From Terriglobia bacterium (lineage in GTDB: Bacteria > Acidobacteriota > Terriglobia > 20CM-2-55-15): DNA of 64,000 nucleotides. The stretch spans positions 736,001-800,000 of the forward strand of contig CBDAOY010000005.1 in the NCBI GenBank assembly GCA_965198225.1. Direction: 5' to 3'. The notes beneath the pieces were generated by a model. The model had not been told where the DNA came from, ran no database searches, and worked only from the letters and a program-made list of their open reading frames with translations. Made by a program: the position numbers and the translations under genes. Below, piece by piece: positions 7,295-26,050 of this stretch (positions are counted from its first letter, which is position 1; every line of letters begins with the position of its first letter).

Positions 7295-7454
7295 GTAGAG
7301 TCGACGACTGGCGCGGTGGCGGTAGGCAAAGGGGGTAGCTGTTGCCGGTGGCTTTCGCCGATTCCGGTGCCTCACTCCTCGCCGTGGCTTCGTTTCCAGT
7401 CGCCGCTCATCGAACCGGACATGCGGATTTCCCGCATCCGGCTCTCGGACGAGA

Positions 7455-8795
7455 TCATGCCTTCGCCCACGGAAAGCTCGCCGTACGCGGCGCAAGATGC
7501 GTGAGCCCGTAATCGGACCAGAGCCGCTCGGACGGGAAGCGCACGTGTTTCCCGGTCCGCACCTTGTGCTTACGGCAGAGCCACTGGCGCGGCCGCCGGG
7601 TCGCGTGTTGATCAATCGCCTTGTAGGCCGGGCGGACCTGTCCCAGGATGAAATAGTTCGCCCAACCGATCAGCAACCGGTTGAGGCGTCCCACTACGAC
7701 TCCCGACGGCAGGAGCACGTGGCGCGGCGCGGTCAACTCGCTCACACGACGGCAGATGCTCTGGACGCTTTCCCGGCTCGGATGTGTGCCTATGTAGGCG
7801 GCACCCGTACCCGGCCGGTAGTTGCAACCGATCCGGTAGCCGAGGAACGTCATCGATTCCTCCGGCACCCGGCAGCAGCGGGTCTTCTCAACGTTCATCG
7901 CCAACTTCAGACGTTTTATCAGGGCTTCGACCGCCGCTAGCATCACCGCTGCCGGCGCGCGACCGAGAACCGCGAAGTCATCCGCGTAGTTGACGATTTC
8001 CGCCTTGAAGTGCCGGGCGTAGCCCAGCACCTTCCAGCCCAGAATGAAGCGCCGCATGTAGATGTTGCTGAACAGCGGCGAGATCGGAGACCCTTGCGGG
8101 GTCCCCTTCCGCTCGTGACGCGCCCGGTTCGTGCGGCGGCGACCGCCGCGCCCGTCGTCCTCTTCCACCGCCATCTCCAGCCACGCCTTGACCCAGCCCA
8201 ACAGCCGCCCGTCGCTCACACGCCGGGCGATGGACTTCATCAGGTCCGCGTGCGGAATCTGGCCGAAGTAGTCCGACAGGTCGGCGTCCACCACCTCCCG
8301 GTGGCCCGTCGTCAGCAGCCGATGCACGCGCCTGACTGCGTCATGCGCGTCTCGGCCCGGCCGGTACGCATACTGCTCCGGTTGCAGGTCGGCTTCGAAG
8401 ATCGGCGATAACACCAGCATCGCCGCCGTCTGCACCACCCGATCCCGGAGACACGGAATGCCCAACGGCCGGAACTTCCCTCGTTGCTTCTTCGGGATGA
8501 GAACCTGCCGAACCGCATGCGGCCGATAGGTCCCTTCCTTCAGGTCCCGCGCCAGTGCTCCCAGCCACCGGTCCACCCCGAACGCATCGATGTCCGCGAC
8601 CGTCTCGCCGTCCACCCCGGCCGCGCCGCCGTTGCGGCGCACGGCCTGCCAGGCGACTGCGAGCACGTCGTCGCGCCACACCTTGTCGCTCAGAGAGTAG
8701 AACCGGAAGCCCAGAGCTTCCTTCGCTTTCGCATGTAGCGCCGTCTGGAGTCGCTGAACTCTCTCCGAGGCTGTTAGGCTCTCGCCAGTCCTCAT
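7455..8795 (-). CDS. ltrA: Group II intron reverse transcriptase/maturase (no endonuclease domain)
   Basis: RPLGIPCLRDRVVQ, YAYRPGR, DADLSDYF, GTPQGSPISPLFSNIYM, YADD, GWANYF. Start placed at MRTGESL; the track's longer start runs into IS DNA. Confidence 0.92.
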   Translation of the reverse strand: MRTGESLTASERVQRLQTALHAKAKEALGFRFYSLSDKVWRDDVLAVAWQAVRRNGGAAGVDGETVADIDAFGVDRWLGALARDLKEGTYRPHAVRQVLIPKKQRGKFRPLGIPCLRDRVVQTAAMLVLSPIFEADLQPEQYAYRPGRDAHDAVRRVHRLLTTGHREVVDADLSDYFGQIPHADLMKSIARRVSDGRLLGWVKAWLEMAVEEDDGRGGRRRTNRARHERKGTPQGSPISPLFSNIYMRRFILGWKVLGYARHFKAEIVNYADDFAVLGRAPAAVMLAAVEALIKRLKLAMNVEKTRCCRVPEESMTFLGYRIGCNYRPGTGAAYIGTHPSRESVQSICRRVSELTAPRHVLLPSGVVVGRLNRLLIGWANYFILGQVRPAYKAIDQHATRRPRQWLCRKHKVRTGKHVRFPSERLWSDYGLTHLAPRTASFPWAKA

Positions 8796-8972
8796 GTCCC
8801 TTCCTCCGTCATGCGCTGCTCTCGAACTGAGGTCCCTTCCCTCCACCGGCATTACCTGATGGGATGGACTCCTCCTTGATGACTGAGTCGGCATCGTAGT
8901 GCCAAAGTCATTGTGAAGCCTCGCGATGGTGCGGGCTAAACACGAGGACGTGTAAACAAGAAGGAGTCCGAG

Positions 8973-10007
8973 ATGAAGAGTAAAACGATCGCAGTGGATC
9001 TGGCAAAGAATGTTTTCGAGATTGGGATTTCCGACCGCCCCGGGCAGATGACGAAGACATACCGTTTAAGCCGGGGAAAGTTCTTGTCGTTTTTTGCGAA
9101 TCAGGAGCTGGCGACGGTCGTGATGGAAGCCTGCAGTGCCGCCCATCACTGGGGACGAGAGATCCAGAAACTGGGGCACACAGTGGTACTGATTTCACCG
9201 CAGTATGTCCGGCCCTACGTACCGAGGAGTAAGACGGATCGGGCGGATGTAAAAGGGTTGCTGGAGGCCCACCGGAATGCCGATATTCGGGCGGTACCCA
9301 TTAAGACGGTGGCGCAACAGCAACTCACCGCCCTGCACCGCATCCGGTCGACCTGGATGCGGACCCGGACGGCGCGCATCAACATGGTGCGGGGGCTGCT
9401 GGGAGAGTTTGGGCTCGTGCTGCCGACGGGAGCCCGGCGGCTGGTGCCCGGAGTCATGGGGTTGATCGAAGATGCGGATGTTGAGATCCCCATGACCGTA
9501 CGCGTCATGTTCTCGGAAGTGTGCACCGAAATCCGCGAGCTGGAGGCACGCATTCAATCGGTGGAGCGGGAGTTGGAAGCCCTGGCCCGTCAGATGCCCG
9601 AGGTGGCCCGTCTGCGCTCGATCCCTGGAATCGGGCTGTTGACTTCCACGGCGATGGTAGGTTTTGTCGGTGACCCCCGACGGTTTCGATCCTGTCGCCA
9701 CTTTGCCAGTTATCTGGGACTCACCCCGCGTGAGCGTTCGAGCGGAAACCGGCGTCGGCTGGGAGCGATCAGCAAACAAGGCAACGTCTACCTGCGGATG
9801 CTGCTCATACACGGTGGCCGCACTCTGCTATGGAGTGCGCATCGAAAAGGGGCGCAACCTTCGGCTCTGCAGAAATGGGGTCTCCGTCTCCACACACTCC
9901 GCGGGCACAACACGGCCACGGTTGCTTTAGCCAACAAACTGGCCCGCACGGTTTGGGCCGTCTGGACACAGGACACGGCGTACGAGGCTGACCGACGGGC
10001 GGCCTGA
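8973..10007 (+). CDS. IS110 DEDD recombinase/transposase
   Basis: IAVDLAKNVF, VVMEAC, KTDRADV, SIPGIG, YLGLTPRERSSG, VALANKLAR. Confidence 0.95.
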   Translation: MKSKTIAVDLAKNVFEIGISDRPGQMTKTYRLSRGKFLSFFANQELATVVMEACSAAHHWGREIQKLGHTVVLISPQYVRPYVPRSKTDRADVKGLLEAHRNADIRAVPIKTVAQQQLTALHRIRSTWMRTRTARINMVRGLLGEFGLVLPTGARRLVPGVMGLIEDADVEIPMTVRVMFSEVCTEIRELEARIQSVERELEALARQMPEVARLRSIPGIGLLTSTAMVGFVGDPRRFRSCRHFASYLGLTPRERSSGNRRRLGAISKQGNVYLRMLLIHGGRTLLWSAHRKGAQPSALQKWGLRLHTLRGHNTATVALANKLARTVWAVWTQDTAYEADRRAA

Positions 10008-10063
10008 CACCATGACTGTAGGAACATCCTTTCAGTAGACTGCGACGACGTTCGAGTTGATGA

Positions 10064-10207
10064 CGTACCGGTCAGACCGGCGCGGGGAAACGCCGGAGAA
10101 GCCGTGGCCCCTGGAGGCCGTTTACCCGGTTGGCACCCCGCGCGCGAATTTCATCATGGCCCGGAACTCAAACGTTCCATTCGAGAGGCCGAAGATACGG
10201 ATGCAGT
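10064..10207 (+). ncRNA. Putative bridge RNA of IS1111 #1 (target- and donor-binding loops)
   Basis: Two internal loops, each built around a TGGCC...GGCCG inner stem. Guides GAAGCCG (10098-10104) and TTACCCG (10122-10128) match the target; CATCA (10152-10156) and AGATA (10193-10197) match the element ends. Boundaries approximate. Confidence 0.75.
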
Positions 10208-10648
10208 CGATCTGTCACTCAACTCGAAAATCAAATATCAGGATGCTGAAAAGAATCTTCGGGAAAAGGATATGGGACAGCTGCGCCTACTTGACAGGAG
10301 GAGTCCAGATACGGCTTTCTTGGTACTGCGGACCTCTCCGCCACCCTGTCGGCCCAACCTGACCCTCGCGGGCTGTCGGTTGGCGCGTGCCACGCCACCG
10401 GCAGGGCTTCCCGTGTTGCGTCCAATCCCCTCTTCCATACATGCCACCGCCCAATACCCCGGCGGAACCAGTCGGTGCTCGCGTCGCTCGCTTCCCGACC
10501 GCTGGCAGCCTTCCCCGTTTCAACGGCGGGTCGGCTTCCGCATTGTGCGTTTCGATGGAGTGGACGCCCCCGCTCCCCGGCGGCAGAATGGGCCGGGTCA
10601 GCAGAACGCACAAGGGGTGCGTTCAGAACACGAGAGAGGGAGGGATAC

Positions 10649-11695
10649 ATGGGCAAGGTGATCACCATCATCGGCATCGACATTTCAAAGAGGTACTTCC
10701 AACTGCATGGAGCCACGGCAAGCGGTGAGCCTGTGCTGCGCAGGCAGCTCACGCGCCCGAAGCTACTCGAGTTCCTCGCCAAGCAGCCTGTCTGCCGGGT
10801 CGTGATGGAAGTGTGCGGCAGCGCCCATCATTGGGGGCGGATGATCCAGGAGATCGGCCACGAGGTCCGCCTGATTCCCCCGATGTATGTGAAGCCGTAC
10901 GTCAAGAGGCAGAAGAATGACGCCAACGACGCGGGAGCGATCGTCGAGGCGGCCCAGCGGCCGACGATGCGGTTCGTGGCCGTGAAGACCGAGGAGGAGC
11001 AGGCACGATCGGTGGTGTTCCGGGCCCGGGCACTGCTGGTGCGCCAGCGGACACAGACGATCAACGCGCTGCGGGGTCATCTCGCGGAGTTTGGACTCGT
11101 CGCTCCGCTTGGGACCCACAACGTCGGGAGGCTGGAGGAGGTGTTCGCGGAGCGTGAAGAGTGTTTCCCGGCGCTGGTGCCTCCCGCCATACGCCGCCTC
11201 ATCGAGCGGACCCACGATCTGGATGCGGAGATCGATGAGCTGGACCGGGAGATCCGTCGCATCGTGAGGGAAGATGAGGCGCTCGGGCGCCTGATGACGA
11301 TTCCAGGGGTGGGAGAGCTCACGGCAATGGCGGTGCACGCGTTCGCGCCACCGATGGAGAGCTTCCGTAATGGACGTGACTTTGCGGCATGGGTCGGGAT
11401 CACGCCGCGTGAATCCTCGACGGGTGGCCGCCAACGGCTGGGGGGGATCACAAAGATGGGACAGCGCGACATCCGGAGGCTCCTGTACCTGGGAGCGACG
11501 GCGGTCATCTCGAGTGCCATCCGGCGGAGGGAGGTCACCGATCCCTGGCTTGGCCGGATGCTGGACGAAAAGCCGAGGAAGGTGGTTGCGGTGGCTCTGG
11601 CCAACAGGATGGCACGCATCATCTGGGCCATGACGGTGAAGGAGGAGAGCTACAGGGCACGGGGAATGACAAAGGCCGTTGCGCCTGCAGCGTAG
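10649..11695 (+). CDS. IS110 DEDD recombinase/transposase
   Basis: IGIDISKRYFQLHG, VVMEVC, QKNDANDA, TIPGVG, WVGITPRESSTGG, VALANRMAR. RBS GGAGGG before ATG 10649. Confidence 0.95.
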   Translation: MGKVITIIGIDISKRYFQLHGATASGEPVLRRQLTRPKLLEFLAKQPVCRVVMEVCGSAHHWGRMIQEIGHEVRLIPPMYVKPYVKRQKNDANDAGAIVEAAQRPTMRFVAVKTEEEQARSVVFRARALLVRQRTQTINALRGHLAEFGLVAPLGTHNVGRLEEVFAEREECFPALVPPAIRRLIERTHDLDAEIDELDREIRRIVREDEALGRLMTIPGVGELTAMAVHAFAPPMESFRNGRDFAAWVGITPRESSTGGRQRLGGITKMGQRDIRRLLYLGATAVISSAIRRREVTDPWLGRMLDEKPRKVVAVALANRMARIIWAMTVKEESYRARGMTKAVAPAA

Positions 11696-11854
11696 GGTTG
11701 CGAGTCAGATCAGTGGAGCGAAGAAGGGTCGGCGAGATCAGAAACGCGGAGAAGAGAGAGGAAATCGTCCGGCTGGCGGCCTGGGCGGATGGACACGGGC
11801 CACGGAGGTTCCAACTGGAGAGTGCAAGCAGGACGTCGGACAAGGTAGGGGCAA

Positions 11855-12000
11855 ACGGTCGACAAGACGGGATCGGAAAACCCAGTAGGCCTCGAAGGGC
11901 CATCGAGCCCGTCGTTTCGATTTGGATCCGATCTCACGAACACCATACGGGCCCGCGGCCAGCAAGTGCCGCATCAAGAGGCCGCACATACGACCGTACC
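11855..12000 (+). ncRNA. Putative bridge RNA of IS1111 #2
   Basis: AGGCCTCGAA (11887-11896) - hairpin GGGC..GCCC - CGTTTCGA (11913-11920) match both strands of the target. CCATACG (11943-11949) and CACATACGA (11985-11993) match the circle junction. Boundaries approximate. Confidence 0.8.
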
Positions 12001-12038
12001 TGACCTGAATGCCACCGATCCTCGGTTCGAAGTCAGGC

Positions 12039-12064
12039 TTGCCAACCAGGGGGGCGTCCACATA
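12039..12064 (+). promoter_or_regulatory. -35 half of a circle-junction promoter of IS1111 #2
   Basis: TTGCCA at 12039-12044. Joining the right end to the left end would create TACGAT 18 nt downstream. Confidence 0.55.
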
Positions 12065-12253
12065 CGAGGCCTGCTCGGCGTTTACTCGCGTTGTGGCCTG
12101 TGTGGTCGCTGAGCCGCCCGAGGCGGCCCTTTGTCATCGGAGTGCTTCAGACGATGTTGTTACCTCCACCATCCGCTCCGATTGCTACCGACTGGAGCGA
12201 CAGTTGCCGGGCGGGATTCGCACCCGCTGAGGATTGGCGCCTTCTCACGGCGC

Positions 12254-12708
12254 GGCTTGAGCCCTCGGCTCCTCATGAAGCTGTAGAGGGTCGTACGGGA
12301 CACGCCCGTGAGCTTGGCGATGGCGGTCTTGGAAACCCCCAGCTTGAGGAAGCGCCGGATGTCGTCCTCCTTGCCGTTGAGCCGTGAGACGCCCAGCGAG
12401 CCTTTCGGGCGCCCGAGCTTCCGGCCCGAGGATCTGGCCTTGGCGAGGGCGTCGAGGATGGCAACGATCTGACCCAGCGACCGACCAAGCCGGGAGAGTT
12501 CGCTGACGACCAAACGGTCGCCGCGCTGGAGAACGTTCATCAGCTCGTCGAGCCGTCGGCGCTTTTCGGAAGCCTATCCAGAGGCGGTCGCCTCGATGAA
12601 ATCGTCGATGCGGAAGTCGTGTTTGCGTGCGTACTCGAGGATGGCGAGGCGCTGGCTGCGCACGTCCTGCTGCGCGGTCGAGACCCTCAAATAGGCAACG
12701 GTTTTCAC
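12254..12708 (-). pseudogene. Serine resolvase/invertase pseudogene
   Basis: VAYLRVSTAQQD, in-frame TAG near 12575, GDRLVVSELSRLGRS, an internal deletion, then LGRPKG and HTH AIAKLTGVSRTTLY fused to the intron 5' end. Confidence 0.8.
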
Positions 12709-16898: not shown

Positions 16899-19800
16899 TC
16901 AGGGACTCGCTGGAGGCGTCGTCGGTTCCACGGCCAACTCCAGCGGCTGACCGTTCTGCCCCGTGAAGCGGATTGATCCGGACGAGGTTTGGCCTGCTGT
17001 CCCGCTGAAGAGGACGAACTGGGTTGTCCATCCGCCGGAATCCACAAAATGGGGGAAGAACAGGTCGGATGCGTGGGCGGCCGCGTTTTCGTCGGCCGGC
17101 GGTGTCGTCGTGACCACAATGTCGAACCGCTGGTTGGTTGTCAACCGCAGGCCGACGACGGCGATGTCGGGCGTCGGGGAGGCAATCCTGAGAATTCCCG
17201 AGAAAGGCGTGGCCAATGCGGGGAAGAATTCGTCGATGAATCGAGCGGCCTGGCCCGATGCGGGGAGGGTGAGGGACTCGGTGAGTCCCGAGGCTGAGCC
17301 GTCCAATGCCGTCAATTCGAGCGACACGACGGTGGCCGTCTCCGATGTGTTGGTCAGGGCAATGCCGCTGCGCACCGAGCCCGGCTGGCCGGGGGTGCCG
17401 CTCGTCTCCCCGTAAACACGAAACGCGTTTCCGGAGATGGAGGCCGGGACACCGGCTTCGGACACGGTCACGCCGGCGTTCTGGTAAGAGAAGATGCTCA
17501 CTCCCGACGGGGCGGCGTGGCCGGGGTCAGCCACCACCCGGACTGAGCCGGTCTGAATGGGGCCGGTGGGACTGGCGGTCTGGAGCCGCGTTGCACTGCG
17601 TGGGGGGATCGCATAGGGGAATGCCGATCCATTACTCCCATCGGCAAGCGTCAGCGTGGCCGGCCCGGCGTTCGCAGTCTCGCTGCCGGGGCCAAGGAAC
17701 TGAACGCTCCCCTGGATCGGGGCATGGGTGGGGTTGACGAGAATGACCTGGGTCGTCCATCCGGCTCCCGCCGCGAAATGCGGAAAGTAGACCGTGGCGG
17801 GCGTGGGGACTGTGAGCGGCGCGACGGGAAGCGTCGTCATCAGGAACTCGGAGCGCTCATTGACGAACCCGCGCAGCGCGATGACGGCGACCGGCAGGTC
17901 GGAGCTGAAGGTGAACGTGCCCCACACTGCGTCGCCTCCGTTAAACGGATCCTCGTCCAGGAATTGTGCGATCTGTTCCCGGGGCCCCAGCATGAACGTG
18001 CCGTGTCCGGAGTCGATGCCTTGGCTATCGGTGAAGAAGAACCCGATCGTGGCGGCGGTGCCGTTGGGATTGGCCATGGCGATCCCGGTCCGGAGAGCAC
18101 CGTCGGTTTCGGCAAAGATCCGGCCTTCCAGTACGGCGGCGGCGGCGGGGACGCCGGCTTCCGAGACGAGAATCCCGTCCTGCCGGGAACCAAATATGGC
18201 CAGTCCGGTTGGCAGCGTCATGCCCGCACCGGCCGCCACCTGTCCATATCCGGCAACGAGCGCGGGGGAGGCGCCCTGGGAGGTGAGGGAAACTCCGCCC
18301 TGGTCTGGAATGGAGAACCGTTGCGTGGCGGACGTACCGGTCGGACTCAGCAGGCGGATCCGGTAGTTGCCCGCATCGGCGATGTAGAGGTTGCCAACCC
18401 CGTCCACCGCCACGCCCCGTATATGGCTGATCTGCGCCTGGCTCGCCGGACCGCCGTCCCCGCTGAAACCGCGCTCCCCCGTGCCCGCAATCGTCGTGAT
18501 CACCCCCGTCGAATCGACCTTGCGGATGCGGAAGTTGCCCGCATCGGCGATGTAGAGGTTGCCAACCCCGTCCACCGCTACGCCTGTGGGAAGCTCGATC
18601 TGCGCCTGGCTCGCCGGACTGCCGTCCCCGCTGAAACCGCGGAGCCCCGTGCCCGCCACGGTCGTGATCATCCCGGTGGAGTCGACCTTGCGGATACGGA
18701 AGTTGTTCCTGTCGGTGATGTAGAGGTTGCCCGCCCCGTCCACCGCCACGCCATAGGGAGAGTTGAGCCCCGCCTGGCTCGCCGGCCCGCCGTCCCCGCT
18801 GAAACCGCGCCGCCCCGTGCCCGCCACGGTCGTGATCGTCCCGGCGGAATCGACCTTGCGGATCCGGTGGTTGCGGGTCTCGGCGAAGTAGAGGTTGCCC
18901 GCCCCGTCCACCGCTATGCCTGTGGGAGTGTTGATCGGCGCCTGGCTCGCCGGCCCACCGTCCCCACTGAAACCGCGGAGCCCCGTGCCCGCCACGGTCG
19001 TGATCGTCCCGGTGGAATCGACCTTGCGGATCCGGTCGTTGACAGCGTCAGCGAAGTAGAGGTTGCCCGCCCCGTCCACCGCTATACCTGTGGGAAGCTC
19101 GATCCACGCCTCGGTCGCCGGACCGCCATCGCCTCTGAAACCGAGCCCCCCCGTGCCCGCCACGGTCGTGATCGTTCCGGTGGAATCGACCTTGCGGATA
19201 CGGCCGTTGCCGAAATCGGCGATGTAGAGGTTGCCCGCCCCGTCCACCGCTATACCTGTGGGAAGCTCGATCCACGCCTCGGTCGCCGGACCGCCATCGC
19301 CGCTGAAACCGAACTTCCCAGTCCCCGCAATCGTCGTGATCGTTCCGGTGGAATCGACCTTGCGGATACGGTTGCCCCTATCGGCGATGTAGAGGTTGCC
19401 CGCCCCGTCGACCGCCACGCCTGTGGGAGTGTTGATCTGCGCCTGGCTCGCCGGACCGCCATCGCCGCTGAAACCGCGCTCCCCAGTCCCCGCAAGCGTC
19501 GTGATCGTTCCGGTGGAATCGACCTTGCGGATACGGTTGCCCCTATCGGCGATGTAGAGGTTGCCTGCACCGTCGACCGCCACACCCTCGGGAGAGTTGA
19601 TCTGCGCCTGGCTCGCCGGACCGCCATCGCCGCTGAAACCGAGCCCCCCTGTGCCCGCCACGGTCGTGATCATCCCGGTGGAGTCGACCTTGCGGAGGCG
19701 GTGGTTGCCGGTATCGGCGATGTAGAGGTTGCCTGCACCGTCGACCGCCACACCCTCGGGAGAGTTGATCTGCGCCTGGCTCGCCGGACCGCCATCGCCG

Positions 19801-21635
19801 CTGAAACCGAGCCCCCCTGTGCCCGCCACGGTCGTGATCATCCCGGTGGAGTCGATTTTGCGGATACGGTGGTTGTTCATATCAGCGATGTAGAGGTTGC
19901 CCGCTCCGTCCAACGCCACACCCTCGGGCCAGGAGAGCGTCGCCTGAGTCGCCGGTCCTCCGTCCCCGCTGAAATCGCTCTTCCCCGTCCCGGCAATCGT
20001 CGTGATCGTCCCGTTGGAATCGACCTTGAGGATGCGATGGTTGTTCCTATGGGCGATGTAGAGGTTGCCCGCCCTGTCCACCGCCACGCCATCGGGAGAG
20101 GAGAACCACGCCTGGGTTGCCGGACCGCCGTCCCCGCTGAAACCGAATTCCTCCGTGCCCGCCACGGTCGTGATCGTCCCGGTGGAATCGACCTTGCGGA
20201 TCCGGTGGTTGCTGCTGTCGGCAAAGTAGAGGTTGCCCACGCCGTCCACCGCCACGCCATCGGGAGAGTTGAGCTCCGCCTGAGTCGCCGGTCCGCCGTC
20301 CCCGCTGAAACGGAGCTCTCCCGTGCCAGCCACGGTTGTGATCGTTCCGGTGGAATCGATCTTGCGGATGAGGCCGTTGCCGGTATCGGCGATGTAGAGG
20401 TTGCCCGCCCCGTCCACCGCCACGTCCTCGGGAGCGGTGAGCTGTGCCTGGGTTGCCGGCCCGCCGTCTCCGCCGGAACCAATCACCCTCGGTCTCCCTG
20501 CCACGGTCGTGATCGTTCCGGTGGAATCGATCTTGCGGATGAGGCGGTTGCCGGTATCGGCGATATAGAGGTTGCCCGCCCCGTCCGCCGCCACGCCCTC
20601 GGGCCAGGAGAGCGACGCCTGAGTCGCCGCCCCGCCGTCTCCGTGGAAACCACTCGCCCTCGGTCTCCCTGCCACGGTCGTGCCCGTCCCCGCGGAATCG
20701 ACCTTGAGGATGCGGTGGTTGCGCCTGTCGGCGATATAGAGGTTGCCCGCCCCGTCCACCGCCACGCCTGTGGGAGAGTTGAGCGGCGCCCCAGTCGCCG
20801 GGTCTCCATTCCGGAAAAATTCGGAACCCATCCCGCCCGCCACGGTCGTGATTGTCCCGGTGGAGTCGACCTTGCGGATCCGGTCGTTGCGCTCATCGGC
20901 AAAGTAGAGGTTGCCCGTCGCGTCCACCGCCATGCCACGGGGAGAGTCGATCTGCGCCTGAGTCGCCGGTCCGCTGTCACCGCTGATACCGTGCTCCCCC
21001 GTGCCCGCCACGGTCGTGATCGTCCCGTTGGAATCGACCTTGCGGATGCGGTGGTTGCTGCTGTCAGCGATGTAGAGGTTGCCCGCCCCGTCCACCGCCA
21101 CGCCATAGGGAGAGTTGATCTGCGCCTGAGTCGCCGGTCCGCCATCGCCGCTGATACCGCGCTCCCCCGTGCCCGCCACGGTCGTGATCGTCCCGTTGGA
21201 ATCGACCTTGCGGATGCGGTGGTTGCTGCTGTCGGCGATGTAGAGGTTGCCTGCCCCGTCCACCGCCACACCCTCGGGACGGGCGATCCGCGCCTGAGTC
21301 GCAGGGCCGCCGTCCTCAAGCACTCGCTGCCCGGCGAAAGTATCGATTCTATAGCTGGTCTGAAGCTGCGCCCAGGCCACTGGAGTGAGCAGTGCCAGGC
21401 AGCCGATAAGAGAAGTGAACCTGGCCAGGAAACGCCCCCCGGACCGTCCATAGGCCCGACGTGGGCGGGGATTACCGGGCCGGTCCGGGAAGAACTCATC
21501 GGCGGCGCATGCCCGCCCGCCGACGGCAAACGCGTAGACTCGCCAACCGCGCGCTCGCAGCGCTGAAAGTATGCTGGATAATTGAGTCATGGATGAATGT
21601 AGCGTTCTGCGTTCTGCGGTTAGTGTATCGTTCAT
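16899..21635 (-). CDS. Large exported NHL-repeat (teneurin-like) protein with C-terminal beta-rich domains; true start uncertain
   Basis: 18 units of GFSGDGGPA...P.GVAVDGAGNLYIAD..N.RIRKVD. Signal-like segment LLTPVAWAQ; C-terminal FPHFAAGAGWTTQ motif present twice. Confidence 0.88.
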   Translation of the reverse strand: MNDTLTAERRTLHSSMTQLSSILSALRARGWRVYAFAVGGRACAADEFFPDRPGNPRPRRAYGRSGGRFLARFTSLIGCLALLTPVAWAQLQTSYRIDTFAGQRVLEDGGPATQARIARPEGVAVDGAGNLYIADSSNHRIRKVDSNGTITTVAGTGERGISGDGGPATQAQINSPYGVAVDGAGNLYIADSSNHRIRKVDSNGTITTVAGTGEHGISGDSGPATQAQIDSPRGMAVDATGNLYFADERNDRIRKVDSTGTITTVAGGMGSEFFRNGDPATGAPLNSPTGVAVDGAGNLYIADRRNHRILKVDSAGTGTTVAGRPRASGFHGDGGAATQASLSWPEGVAADGAGNLYIADTGNRLIRKIDSTGTITTVAGRPRVIGSGGDGGPATQAQLTAPEDVAVDGAGNLYIADTGNGLIRKIDSTGTITTVAGTGELRFSGDGGPATQAELNSPDGVAVDGVGNLYFADSSNHRIRKVDSTGTITTVAGTEEFGFSGDGGPATQAWFSSPDGVAVDRAGNLYIAHRNNHRILKVDSNGTITTIAGTGKSDFSGDGGPATQATLSWPEGVALDGAGNLYIADMNNHRIRKIDSTGMITTVAGTGGLGFSGDGGPASQAQINSPEGVAVDGAGNLYIADTGNHRLRKVDSTGMITTVAGTGGLGFSGDGGPASQAQINSPEGVAVDGAGNLYIADRGNRIRKVDSTGTITTLAGTGERGFSGDGGPASQAQINTPTGVAVDGAGNLYIADRGNRIRKVDSTGTITTIAGTGKFGFSGDGGPATEAWIELPTGIAVDGAGNLYIADFGNGRIRKVDSTGTITTVAGTGGLGFRGDGGPATEAWIELPTGIAVDGAGNLYFADAVNDRIRKVDSTGTITTVAGTGLRGFSGDGGPASQAPINTPTGIAVDGAGNLYFAETRNHRIRKVDSAGTITTVAGTGRRGFSGDGGPASQAGLNSPYGVAVDGAGNLYITDRNNFRIRKVDSTGMITTVAGTGLRGFSGDGSPASQAQIELPTGVAVDGVGNLYIADAGNFRIRKVDSTGVITTIAGTGERGFSGDGGPASQAQISHIRGVAVDGVGNLYIADAGNYRIRLLSPTGTSATQRFSIPDQGGVSLTSQGASPALVAGYGQVAAGAGMTLPTGLAIFGSRQDGILVSEAGVPAAAAVLEGRIFAETDGALRTGIAMANPNGTAATIGFFFTDSQGIDSGHGTFMLGPREQIAQFLDEDPFNGGDAVWGTFTFSSDLPVAVIALRGFVNERSEFLMTTLPVAPLTVPTPATVYFPHFAAGAGWTTQVILVNPTHAPIQGSVQFLGPGSETANAGPATLTLADGSNGSAFPYAIPPRSATRLQTASPTGPIQTGSVRVVADPGHAAPSGVSIFSYQNAGVTVSEAGVPASISGNAFRVYGETSGTPGQPGSVRSGIALTNTSETATVVSLELTALDGSASGLTESLTLPASGQAARFIDEFFPALATPFSGILRIASPTPDIAVVGLRLTTNQRFDIVVTTTPPADENAAAHASDLFFPHFVDSGGWTTQFVLFSGTAGQTSSGSIRFTGQNGQPLELAVEPTTPPASP
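18350..21330 (-). repeat. Intragenic tandem array of 18 ~168-bp NHL repeat units
   Basis: Recurring GTAGAGGTTGCCCGCCCCGTCCACCGC at ~165-171 bp spacing; some adjacent units nearly identical. Confidence 0.9.
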
Positions 21636-23704: not shown

Positions 23705-24168
23705 TATCAGCCAGTCTGACTTCCGACAGGCCTTCGGGTCTTCCTCGCGTTGTTGGCTTGTCCAACCCTACAAGCTCCGCTTGAACCTGACGGATCTCCC
23801 TTGTTCCCATGAAATCCTTGGTTGCATGCCGGCGGTACGAACCCCGGAAGGTTGCCATTGCGTGCCCTGCGATTCCGCCTTCCCCGGCGGTACGAACCCC
23901 GGAAGCACCCCAGGGCACGCCATTGCGTGCCCTGCGATTCCGCCTTCCCCCAGCGACAGGGTCGGCTACTTCAACCACGTTCGATCAACCACGTTCGATT
24001 TCGGGGCTATCTTTCCGTTCACTGGTGTTCCGGCCTACTCCCTCCCTGTCTACGCTTCGCAGTGTCCGTCACCGACCACCACGCAAGACTCGGTACGTGG
24101 CTGCCGGCTAGGCTCTGCCACGGCCGCCATCTCAGGCGACTGGATCTCATGCGCTTGCAAGGCGCAAC

Positions 24169-26050
24169 GCTCATCGAACCGGACATGCAGATTTCCCGCA
24201 TCCGGCTCTCGGACGAGATCATGCCTTCGCCCACGGAAAGCTCGCCGTACGCGGCGCAAGATGCGTGAGCCCGTAATCGGACCAGAGCCGCTCGACCGGG
24301 AAGCGCACGTGTTTCCCGGTCCGCACCTTGTGCTTACGGCAGAGCCACTGGCGCAGCCGCCGAGTTGCGTGCCGGTCAATCGCCTCGTAGGCCGGGCTGA
24401 CCTGTCCCAGGGTGAAGTAGTTCGCCCAACCGGTCAGCAACCGGTTGAGGCGTCCCACTACGACCTCCGGCGGCAGGAGCGCGTGACGCGGCGTGGTCAA
24501 CTCGCTCACACGACGGCAGATGCTCTGGACGCTTTCCCGGCTCGGACGTGTGCCTATGTAGGCGGCACCCGTGTCCGGCCGGTAGTTGCAACCAATCCGG
24601 TAGCCGAGGAACGTCATCGATTCCTCCGGCACCCGGCAGCAGCGGGTCTTCTCAACGTTCATCGCCAACTTCAGACGTTTTATCAGGGCTTCGACCGCCG
24701 CTAGCATTACCGCTGCCGGCGCGCGACCGAGAACCGCGAAGTCATCCGCGTAGTTGACGATTTCCGCCTTGAAGTGCCGGGCGTAGCCCAGCACCTTCCA
24801 GCCCAGAATGAAGCGCCGCATGTAGATGTTGCTGAACAGCGGCGAGATCGGAGACCCTTGCGGGGTCCCCTTCCGCTCGTGACGCGCCCGGTTCGTGCGG
24901 CGGCGACCGCCGCGCCCGTCGTCCTCTTCCACCGCCATCTCCAGCCACGCCTTGACCCAGCCCAACAGCCGCCCGTCGCTCACGCGCCGGGCGATGGACT
25001 TCATCAGGTCCGCGTGCGGAATCTGGCCGAAGTAGTCCGACAGGTCGGCGTCCACCACCTCCCGGTGGCCCGTCCTCAGCAGCCGATGCACGCGCCTGAT
25101 TGCGTCATGCGCGTCTCGGCCCGGCCGGTACGCATACTGCTCCGGTTGCAGGTCGGCTTCGAAGATCGGCGATAACACCAGCATCGCCGCCGTCTGCACC
25201 ACCCGATCCCGGAGACACGGAATGCCCAACGGCCGGAACTTCCCTCGTTGCTTCTTCGGGATGAGAACCTGCCGAACCGCATGCGGCCGATAGGTCCCTT
25301 CCTTCAGGTCCCGCGCCAGTGCTCCCAGCCACCGGTCTACCCCAAGCGCCTCGATGTCTCCGACCGTCTCGCCGTCCACCCCGGCCGCGCCGCCGTTGCG
25401 GCGCACGGCCTGCCAGGCGACTGCGAGCACGTCGTCGCGCCACACCTTGTCGCTCAGAGAGTAGAACCGGAAGCCCAGAGCTTCCTTCGCTTTCGCATGT
25501 AGCGCCGTCTGGAGTCGCTGAACTCTCTCCGAGGCTGTTAGGCTCTCGCCAGTCCTCATGTCCCTTCCTCCGTCATGCGCTGCTCTCGAACTGAGGTCCC
25601 TTCCCTCCACCGGCATTACCCGGCTTCCCTGGTACTGCGGACCTCTCCGCCACCCTGTCGGCCCAACCTGACCCTCGCGGGCTGTCGGTTGGCGCATGCC
25701 ACGCCACCGGCAGGGCTTCCCGTGTTGCGTCCATCCCCCCCTTCCACACGTGCCGCCGCTACTACCCCGGCGGAACCGGTCGGTGCTCGCGTCGCTCGCT
25801 TCCCGACCGCTGGCAGCCTTCCCCGTATTCCGGGCGGATCGGCTTCCGCATCGCTTCGTTACGAGGCCTGCGCAGCGTTCACATCGTTGCGGCCCGCGTG
25901 GTCGCTGAACCGCCCAGGGCGGCCCTTTGTCATCGGAGTGCTTCAGCCGATGTCGTTACCTCCATCGTCCGCTCCGACTGCTACCGGCTGGAGCGACAGT
26001 TGCCGGGCGGGGTTCGCACCCGCTGGGGAATGGCGCCTTTCACGGCGCAC
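24169..26050 (-). mobile_element. Group II intron copy A2 (domains I-V; domain VI displaced by intron B)
   Basis: Canonical 5' GTGCGCCGTG at 26050; domain V GAGCCGGATGCGGGAAATCTGCATGTCCGGTTC; near-identical RT to A1. Confidence 0.9.
24219..25559 (-). CDS. ltrA: Group II intron reverse transcriptase/maturase
   Basis: Same motifs as 7455-8795 (YADD, GTPQG, GWANYF), with few substitutions. Confidence 0.92.
   Translation of the reverse strand: MRTGESLTASERVQRLQTALHAKAKEALGFRFYSLSDKVWRDDVLAVAWQAVRRNGGAAGVDGETVGDIEALGVDRWLGALARDLKEGTYRPHAVRQVLIPKKQRGKFRPLGIPCLRDRVVQTAAMLVLSPIFEADLQPEQYAYRPGRDAHDAIRRVHRLLRTGHREVVDADLSDYFGQIPHADLMKSIARRVSDGRLLGWVKAWLEMAVEEDDGRGGRRRTNRARHERKGTPQGSPISPLFSNIYMRRFILGWKVLGYARHFKAEIVNYADDFAVLGRAPAAVMLAAVEALIKRLKLAMNVEKTRCCRVPEESMTFLGYRIGCNYRPDTGAAYIGTRPSRESVQSICRRVSELTTPRHALLPPEVVVGRLNRLLTGWANYFTLGQVSPAYEAIDRHATRRLRQWLCRKHKVRTGKHVRFPVERLWSDYGLTHLAPRTASFPWAKA

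Follow-up and report, generated by a model that had tools for sequence, protein, structure and literature searches.

The insertion sequence (IS) named IS2 here occupies positions 10553-12066 of a 64,000-nucleotide (nt) stretch of Terriglobia bacterium DNA (GenBank assembly GCA_965198225.1, contig CBDAOY010000005.1, forward-strand positions 736,001 to 800,000); this whole stretch is referred to as the window. As judged from the sequence, the 3' non-coding region of IS2 very probably encodes a structured guide RNA of the IS1111 type, by which both the target and the donor DNA would be read. The stretch 11855-12064, in which an initial annotation had proposed a bridge RNA, forms the 3' non-coding end of the element. 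This reading is based on the anatomy of the sequence, on the co-variation of guides with targets and of guides with donor ends, on structural co-variation within the putative RNA and on the repeated insertion of the element at the same site in separate copies of a group II intron. The proposal of a bridge RNA is supported by relatives of IS2, in which the target segments co-vary with the flanks of the elements and the stems show compensatory changes. Coordinates refer to the window, and features lie on its plus strand unless stated otherwise.

IS2 was found as an intact element inside domain I of the group II intron copy A1, and the copy A2 is uninterrupted. Two short segments of the 3' region match the target site on opposite strands. 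The 5' target guide AGGCCTCGAA (11887-11896) gives an exact 10-nt match, in which AGGCCU, CG and AA pair with the top strand TT-CG-AGGCCT, and the 3' target guide CGTTTCGA (11913-11920) gives an exact 8-nt match, in which CGUUU, CG and A equal the top strand and pair with the bottom strand. In A1 the target is divided into the left half GCGTTT (10547-10552) and the right half AGGCCT (12067-12072), and the empty site reads GCGTTT-CG-AGGCCTG. Matches of 10 and 8 nt to opposite strands, on either side of a GGGC/GCCC hairpin, had been described in the initial annotation; all of the strings exist, if at positions slightly off from those it implied. The empty site, which it had reconstructed, was likewise correct and occurs for real, namely as the uninterrupted sequence GCGTTTCGAGGCCTG in three paralogous copies of the intron in this genome and in contigs from public sequencing runs.

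The probability of such matches was assessed by shuffling the 354-nt non-coding region 20000 times with its dinucleotide composition preserved. Of these shuffles, 996 gave a top-sense match of 8 nt across the core and 108 a bottom-sense match of 10 nt, and both target matches were present at once in 3. The guide complementary to the top strand is located 5' of the guide for the bottom strand, and their matches share part of the target; this arrangement is the one given for IS1111 seekRNAs in the accessible text of PMC11187229, and all statements attributed below to that paper and to PMC11208160 refer to the accessible parts of the two sources.

Stronger evidence for the guides was obtained from natural variants of the element. 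A scan of one genome per species yielded 69 loci encoding relatives of the transposase, and 17 distinct elements, IS2 included, shared their ends and an alignable 3' region and differed in their flanks (group 1). In the alignment of group 1 the scaffold was conserved, and the two short variable blocks were exactly the two segments that had been named as target guides. In the relatives, the 3' block repeats the 5-6 bases that precede the core, followed by CG, and the 5' block, read as its reverse complement, gives CG and the 5-7 bases that follow it. Between each guide and its own target a mean of 9.6 of 13 positions matched, compared with a mean of 4.2 of 13 for the 272 cross pairs, and the observed mean was reached by none of 20000 permutations; in this scoring the element L012 was mis-registered by one alignment column. 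The re-coding known from seekRNAs, in which the guides follow the target and the stems are kept, was thus found among the relatives of IS2.

A conserved RNA scaffold, the predicted seekRNA or bridge RNA, extends over 11838-12005, with approximate bounds that were set by conservation in alignments of 18 and 26 relatives and do not denote RNA ends. Five helices were assigned within it. Helices 1 and 2 form the basal stems of the predicted target loop, with their 5' halves (GGGAUCGGA, then CCAG) at 11869-11885 and their 3' halves (UUGG, then UCCGAUCUC) at 11922-11935, as obtained from the single-sequence fold. Helix 3 is the apical hairpin GGGC-loop-GCCC at 11897-11910, in which three pairs show compensatory changes and the loop sequence is unconserved. 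In the fold of 11866-11940 both guides are located in the internal loop between the basal stem and this hairpin. Helices 4 and 5, derived from the consensus fold, make up the donor-loop stem GGCC-C-GCGGC ... GCCGC ... GGCC (11950-11983), which is 99-100% paired in the relatives and contains 3 pairs with compensatory changes.

The five-helix structure was evaluated on 26 relatives and comprises 26 pairs, with 92.2% of the cells paired and 10 pairs changed on both sides. On four of five measures, including the percentage paired and the covariation score, the observed values were reached by 0 of 500 shuffles, and the fifth measure, the number of further pair types, was reached by 32 of 500. Slid controls were 25-51% paired. 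The structure was partly derived from the window's own fold, which somewhat favours the window structure in these comparisons; RNAalifold independently recovered the core of both stem-loops. Two further candidates were rejected since they are not kept in the relatives: the outer stem ACGGUCG/CGACCGU of a 213-nt fold, and the apical hairpin loop CCATCGA, which is complementary to the left junction and had been considered as a guide.

Behind the second stem-loop, the left-donor guide CACAUACGA (DNA CACATACGA; 11985-11993) is identical to the right end of IS2 plus the core, CCACATA-CG. A donor match of this length (9 nt) occurred in 150 of the 20000 shuffles. The part conserved in the relatives is ACAUACG (11986-11992), giving an effective length of about 7 nt, and in the group-1 relatives ACATACG at this position equals the right end plus the core. 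The donor segment was found to co-vary with the right end across five end types: the guide ACATA-CG goes with the right end CCACATA in group 1, ACACC-TG with CCACACC and ACACA-TG with CCACACA in group 2 (L040-type relatives), AGATA-CG with CCAGATA in L069 and in IS#1, the second IS1111-type element of the window, and ATATA-AG with CCATATA in L048 and L049. The pattern is broken by L051 and L066, with right ends that do not fit, and by L064 and L072, in which the guide departs from the end by one or two bases. IS2 contains the left-donor guide expected of a bridge RNA, with a match to the right end and the core, and the earlier observation of a match to the predicted circle junction CCACATA|CGATGG gains support from the co-variation, at the effective length of about 7 nt.

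A weaker candidate for a right-donor guide is located on the 5' side of the donor loop (11940-11949), where CCAU at 11943-46 is complementary to the left-end ATGG and is conserved in group 1. This 4-nt segment becomes CCTT in L048, where the left end is AAGG; a 6-nt bottom-sense donor match was obtained in 27% of the shuffles. In the relatives L040-L066 and in IS#1, UG is found in the left-target and left-donor guides at the place of a DNA core that reads CG at one junction or at both, and some of these elements have TG at the left and CG at the right junction. These sequences suggest that the core is paired through a wobble and that donor and target do not have the same core.

Several observations weigh against a guiding role of the 3' region or limit the strength of the comparisons. 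Among the 17 relatives, two showed a poor fit between guides and flanks (L027 with 4/13 and L072 with 7/13 positions), and L016 matched at 2/7 positions on the right (7/13 overall); off-target insertion, later rearrangement or mobilisation by the RNA of another copy are possible explanations for these copies. The relatives are not independent samples, because several of them are from one genome. The candidate right-donor guide is short (4-5 nt) and fails to follow the left end in L069. Single-sequence folds were no more stable than those of shuffles (z of -0.18, -1.48 and -0.32). In a search of the region against Rfam no family reached the threshold, and up to an E-value of 10 two chance-level matches only were obtained. 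The guide order and the family features used for comparison were taken from the text of PMC11187229. Four public runs contained no circle junction but only one odd back-joint, described below, and the RNA run X20 covers 11668-11844 (depth 3.2) and has no contig on 11864-12046, which is evidence neither for nor against the predicted RNA. That the matches arose by chance or as remnants of target DNA, the 3' region having no guiding role, would fit their shortness, the occurrence of the 8-mer alone in about 5% of the shuffles and the unremarkable stability of the single-sequence fold, but is highly improbable given the joint match in 3 of 20000 shuffles, the re-coding of homologous positions with the flanks in the 17 relatives (0 of 20000 permutations), the stems that keep pairing through compensatory changes and an architecture that equals the experimentally validated one of PMC11187229.

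Under the favoured reading, in which the 3' region acts as a guide RNA, the following course of events is proposed. The basal stem (11869-85 with 11922-35) and the apical hairpin (11897-11910) of the target loop would frame two single-stranded guides, of which the 5' guide AGGCCU-CG(-AA) would pair with the top strand of the target to the right of the core and the 3' guide CGUUU-CG(-A) with the bottom strand to the left of it. The donor loop (stem 11950-83), through its flank ACAUACG and, weakly, its flank CCAU, would bind the excised circle at its joined ends. A recombinase of the DEDD/Ser type would exchange the strands at the CG core, resulting in insertion without duplication. The joined ends would also assemble the promoter TTGCCA-18-TACGAT, which would read into the transposase gene and subsequently into the guide RNA. 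We infer the production of the RNA, its binding by the protein and the formation of the circle.

The predicted -35 half of this junction promoter, TTGCCA, is located at 12039-12044 and is completed only on joined ends, where TA (12063-64), CG and AT (10555-56) form the predicted -10 element and give TTGCCA-N18-TACGAT. By a hand count with the criteria of the promoter scan, the joined-end promoter would score 9/12. The integrated right end reads TACGAG and was not scored as a promoter, and a scan for sigma-70-like promoters in the integrated element and its flanks (10450-12150) found none. In the 22 relatives listed, TTGC.. was found 17-18 nt before the terminal TA in all 22, and the -10 element was TACGAT in 20. 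Circle-junction promoters have been described for ISEc11 and other members of the family (PMC11187229, PMC11208160). A junction promoter is plausible for IS2 and, as far as the sequence tells, conserved in the relatives; the sequence elements given in the initial annotation exist and recur in the relatives, and neither a transcript nor a circle junction was seen. In the public run X2, one contig (depth 10) joins 11962 back to 10553 with 19 other letters between, and these letters resemble the donor-loop sequence of a relative; this back-joint could represent a rearranged or tandem element or an assembly artefact. The run X20 is a metatranscriptome labelled as sponge metagenome and contains contigs of the intron flanks 10400-10554 and 12065-12168, including the empty-site form. 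The intron family is present in the X20 RNA library, with carry-over of DNA being possible.

The boundaries of IS2 were determined by aligning the interrupted intron copy A1 with the uninterrupted copy A2, which revealed two inserts, IS#1 at 8857-10311 and IS2 at approximately 10553-12066. IS2 measures 1512 nt, to which one copy of the CG core is added; this core stands at each of the two junctions (10553-54 and 12065-66). The ends CG-ATGGAGTGGACGCC ... GGCGTCCACATA-CG are common to the 17 relatives, and the core is assigned as CG and not as CGA, as had been given initially, because the flanks of these relatives differ after CG; the CGA shared at both junctions of IS2 is due to chance. No target duplication beyond the shared core was found, in agreement with the site-specific insertion of the IS110 family. 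The left subterminal inverted repeat GTGGACGCCCCC (10560-10571) is the perfect 12-nt reverse complement of the right one, GGGGGCGTCCAC (12050-12061), and the same repeat is present in the relatives. These perfect 12-base pair (bp) repeats lie 5-7 nt inside the ends and fall within the length range of 7-17 bp given for IS1111 subterminal repeats (PMC11208160). The non-coding parts of IS2 measure 95 nt on the 5' side (10554-10648) and 371 nt on the 3' side (11696-12066).

The genome contains 3 copies of IS2, every one at the same intron position, the third lacking the first 364 nt. Between the window copy and the copy on contig C4, homology stops at the intron end on one side and at the insertion point of IS#1 on the other, and the two therefore reside in different intron copies at different host sites; two of the three copies are accordingly in intron copies with differing host flanks beyond the intron end. 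The third copy (G000 C5:826162-827312) adjoins a repeat of about 1.7 kb that is found in at least 9 further places of the genome and is probably another insertion sequence. The empty-site joint 10552 to 12065 was present in contigs of 3 of the 4 public runs.

The transposase gene of IS2 (10649-11695) encodes a protein of 348 amino acids (aa) with matches to Pfam PF01548 (E-value 2.9e-15) and PF02371 (1.1e-21). The combination of an N-terminal DEDD/RuvC-like domain (PF01548) and a C-terminal domain PF02371, as expected of the IS110 family, is thus present, and the NCBIfam model NF033542 ('IS110 family RNA-guided transposase') was matched with 319.8 bits, compared with a cut-off of 140. According to PMC11187229, IS1111 elements are recognised by the size and a motif of the protein, a long non-coding region downstream of the transposase gene (tnp) and subterminal repeats. 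The motif GITPRESSTG in the 348-aa protein agrees with the expected 330-350 aa and GL-P----S(t)G, and a long non-coding region downstream of tnp was found in IS2. The arrangement of IS621 and the IS110 group, in which the RNA is located in the left end upstream of the gene, does not apply, and IS2 was assigned to the IS1111 arrangement because the conserved RNA lies downstream of the gene. The sequence-level criteria examined here identify IS2 as an IS1111-type member of the IS110 family with the published seekRNA or bridge RNA architecture.

The intron A1 is located on the minus strand, and Rfam group II intron domains were detected at 7295-7446, 12086-12229, 23889-24132 and 25882-26025; a 479-aa open reading frame (ORF) at 7455-8894 encodes a reverse transcriptase/maturase. 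Together, the two guides of IS2 specify about 13 bp, CGTTT-CG-AGGCCT, which is a conserved motif in domain I of this group II intron family. The motif TTT-CG-AGGCCTG(C/T) is kept in intron copies with as little as about 75% identity, from 9 of the 33 further genomes of the order, and was also found in many empty-site variants from public runs. In the consensus fold of 15 intron copies GGCCU is located in a stem and CGAAA is unpaired. It was considered whether a GNRA tetraloop of the intron RNA has the variable base at position -1 relative to the core as its N; this is unsupported, as CGAAA is unpaired and has no closing pair. The left-end pattern of IS2 with TTN flanks was searched in 401 genomes of the phylum and in 34 of the order and matched only the window's own genome in both sets.

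The unoccupied site of A2, CGTTACGAGGCCT (CGTTA-CG-AGGCCT; 25857-25869), carries A at position -1 (25861), where A1 has T. A single substitution next to the core had been reported in the initial annotation, and A1 and A2 are indeed identical at all other positions of the 13 guide-matched bases. The further proposal of that annotation that A2 is an escape allele was not established: across the intron copies, 3 of 6 T-type sites and 0 of 3 non-T sites are occupied (one-sided Fisher test, about 0.24, hand calculation), three sites that match perfectly are unoccupied as well, and the A2 copies are probably young.

The A2 allele is rather likely to be either the footprint of an excision, in which the A was copied from the right end ..CATA-CG.. 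by a crossover one base further left, or a neutral difference between lineages, the site being unoccupied by chance or owing to its youth. Over 11 nt the right junction TA-CG-AGGCCTG is the same as the A2 site, the sequence surrounding the site is only 86-89% identical between the A1 and A2 lineages, and half of the perfect sites are empty. Furthermore, the A2-type copies are near-identical and have therefore expanded recently. A footprint leaves the C found at -1 in a sister copy unexplained, however, and insertion and excision in the family are described as precise (PMC11187229); two derived states at a base otherwise invariant across introns of about 75% identity are hard to explain by neutrality.

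Target-site escape, in which A at -1 (or C in the sister copy) would mismatch both guides and shield the introns of the A2 lineage, and which would be favoured as IS2 kills the intron, is regarded as unlikely. In its favour, position -1 is the sole difference between A1 and A2 in the 13 guide-matched bases and is read by both guides of IS2, and T was found at this position in 22 of 25 site sequences from 9 genomes as well as in the empty-site variants from public runs, the three exceptions (A, A and C) being the A2 lineage of the window's genome. A2 and the copy at G000 C6:410066-410382 differ by 2 substitutions in 886 nt, one of them at -1 (A versus C), but to argue from the probability of this second substitution is to reason after the fact, and the C6 copy, which is in fragments, is probably decaying. 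The contrast in occupancy (0 of 3 non-T against 3 of 6 T sites) points in the expected direction and is not significant (about 0.24), and three perfect T-type sites in the same genome are empty as well. The A2-type copies, being at least 99% identical, may be too young to have been hit. IS621 tolerates single guide-target mismatches poorly (PMC11208160), and in 16 of the 17 relatives the left -1 base of the insertion matches the guide; on the other hand, the natural insertions L064, L029 and L030 have mismatches beside the core on the right, the C allele could pair with the 3' guide via rU:dG, a wobble used by relatives at the core, and the effect of a guide mismatch in IS2 is itself a prediction from the sequence. 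It is accordingly doubtful that an arms race of two selfish elements has taken place, in which IS2 inactivated half of the matching copies and the expanding intron lineage changed the core-adjacent base twice (T to C/A). At G000 C6:407740-413879, an A2-type intron was found in three pieces with about 1.8 kb and 3.5 kb of DNA between them, near but not at the sites of IS#1 and IS2.

The neighbouring element IS#1 (= IS1; 8857-10311) is likewise of the IS1111 type and lies in the intron copy that also contains IS2, with its transposase gene at 8973-10007. It shares the architecture, the RNA scaffold and the intron family with IS2, and the two transposases are 37% identical. IS#1 has guides that agree with its own target CATTACC-CG-GCTT, a site of the intron other than that used by IS2, and a donor guide, AGATACG, that agrees with its own right end; its ends, TG-ATGGGATGGACTCC ... 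GGAGTCCAGATA, are unlike those of IS2. Four identical copies of IS#1 are present in the genome, and its left junction has TG in place of the CG of the empty site. A 126-aa ORF on the minus strand (12160-12540), adjacent to the 5' end of intron A1, gave weak matches to the resolvase N-terminal domain and HTH_7 and may be a fragment of a serine recombinase gene hit by the intron. Elsewhere in the window, about 15 tandem copies of a 168-nt unit (18316-21353), 62-86% identical to a reference copy, are located inside a 1578-aa ORF on the minus strand (16899-21635).

IS2 and its relatives represent a natural re-coding series, in which at least a dozen targets are addressed from one scaffold with a CG core, by a left guide of about 5 nt, a right guide of 5-7 nt and a donor guide that tracks the right end. 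Such a series helps to define guide rules for the engineering of compact recombinases. Both IS2 and IS#1 land in a group II intron family, by which host genes are spared and a competing mobile element is inactivated. An escape, if true, would be a natural evasion of an RNA-guided recombinase by one target base and would be of wider interest only if confirmed.

IS2 was compared with known systems by description, the likeness to named IS1111 elements being drawn from published text. IS1111 elements with subterminal inverted repeats, a downstream non-coding region and a seekRNA were described by Siddiquee et al. 2024 (PMC11187229), who reported that the seekRNA segment complementary to the top strand lies 5' of the segment for the bottom strand, with overlapping target matches, and that ISEc11 and ISXne4 are naturally re-directed by replaced guide segments. 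According to Durrant et al. 2024 (PMC11208160), the right end of IS1111 members encodes a bridge RNA, and target- and donor-complementary loops can be identified. With the IS1111 seekRNA elements ISEc11, ISPa11, ISKpn4 and ISPst6 (PMC11187229), IS2 has in common the DEDD transposase, PF02371, the S/T-G motif, the subterminal repeats, the downstream non-coding region, two overlapping guides in the same order and a predicted circle-junction promoter, and its relatives are re-targeted by guide replacement with the stems kept, as are ISEc11 and ISXne4. It differs from them in its core, CG, and in its target, a conserved motif of group II introns, whereas ISEc11 uses a short chromosomal site and ISEc21 an IS3-family transposase gene (PMC11187229). 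A narrow literature search of titles and abstracts yielded no paper on IS110-family elements targeting group II introns, which is not proof of novelty. Moreover, the predicted RNA of IS2 contains an additional stem-loop, and the segment on its 3' side co-varies with the right end, whereas for ISEc11 an 82-nt RNA with the target matches alone sufficed (PMC11187229); a donor loop for IS1111 members may already be contained in the supplementary figures of PMC11187229 and PMC11208160, among the long seekRNA folds and predicted bridge RNAs.

IS621 differs from IS2 in several respects: its RNA is specified by the left end, ahead of the gene, and its strand guides follow each other in the opposite order (PMC11187229). 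Its core is CT and its subterminal repeat measures only 2-3 bp, compared with CG and 12 bp in IS2. The candidate right-donor guide of IS2, with 4-5 nt and no clear co-variation, is a further difference from IS621. A study by Hiraizumi et al. 2024 (PMC11208158) is said to deal with the IS621 bridge RNA as well. The IS621 bridge RNA (PMC11208160) is bispecific, with a target loop and a donor loop, a guide for each strand around a dinucleotide core and a promoter formed on the circle, and the predicted RNA of IS2 would be of the same general design.

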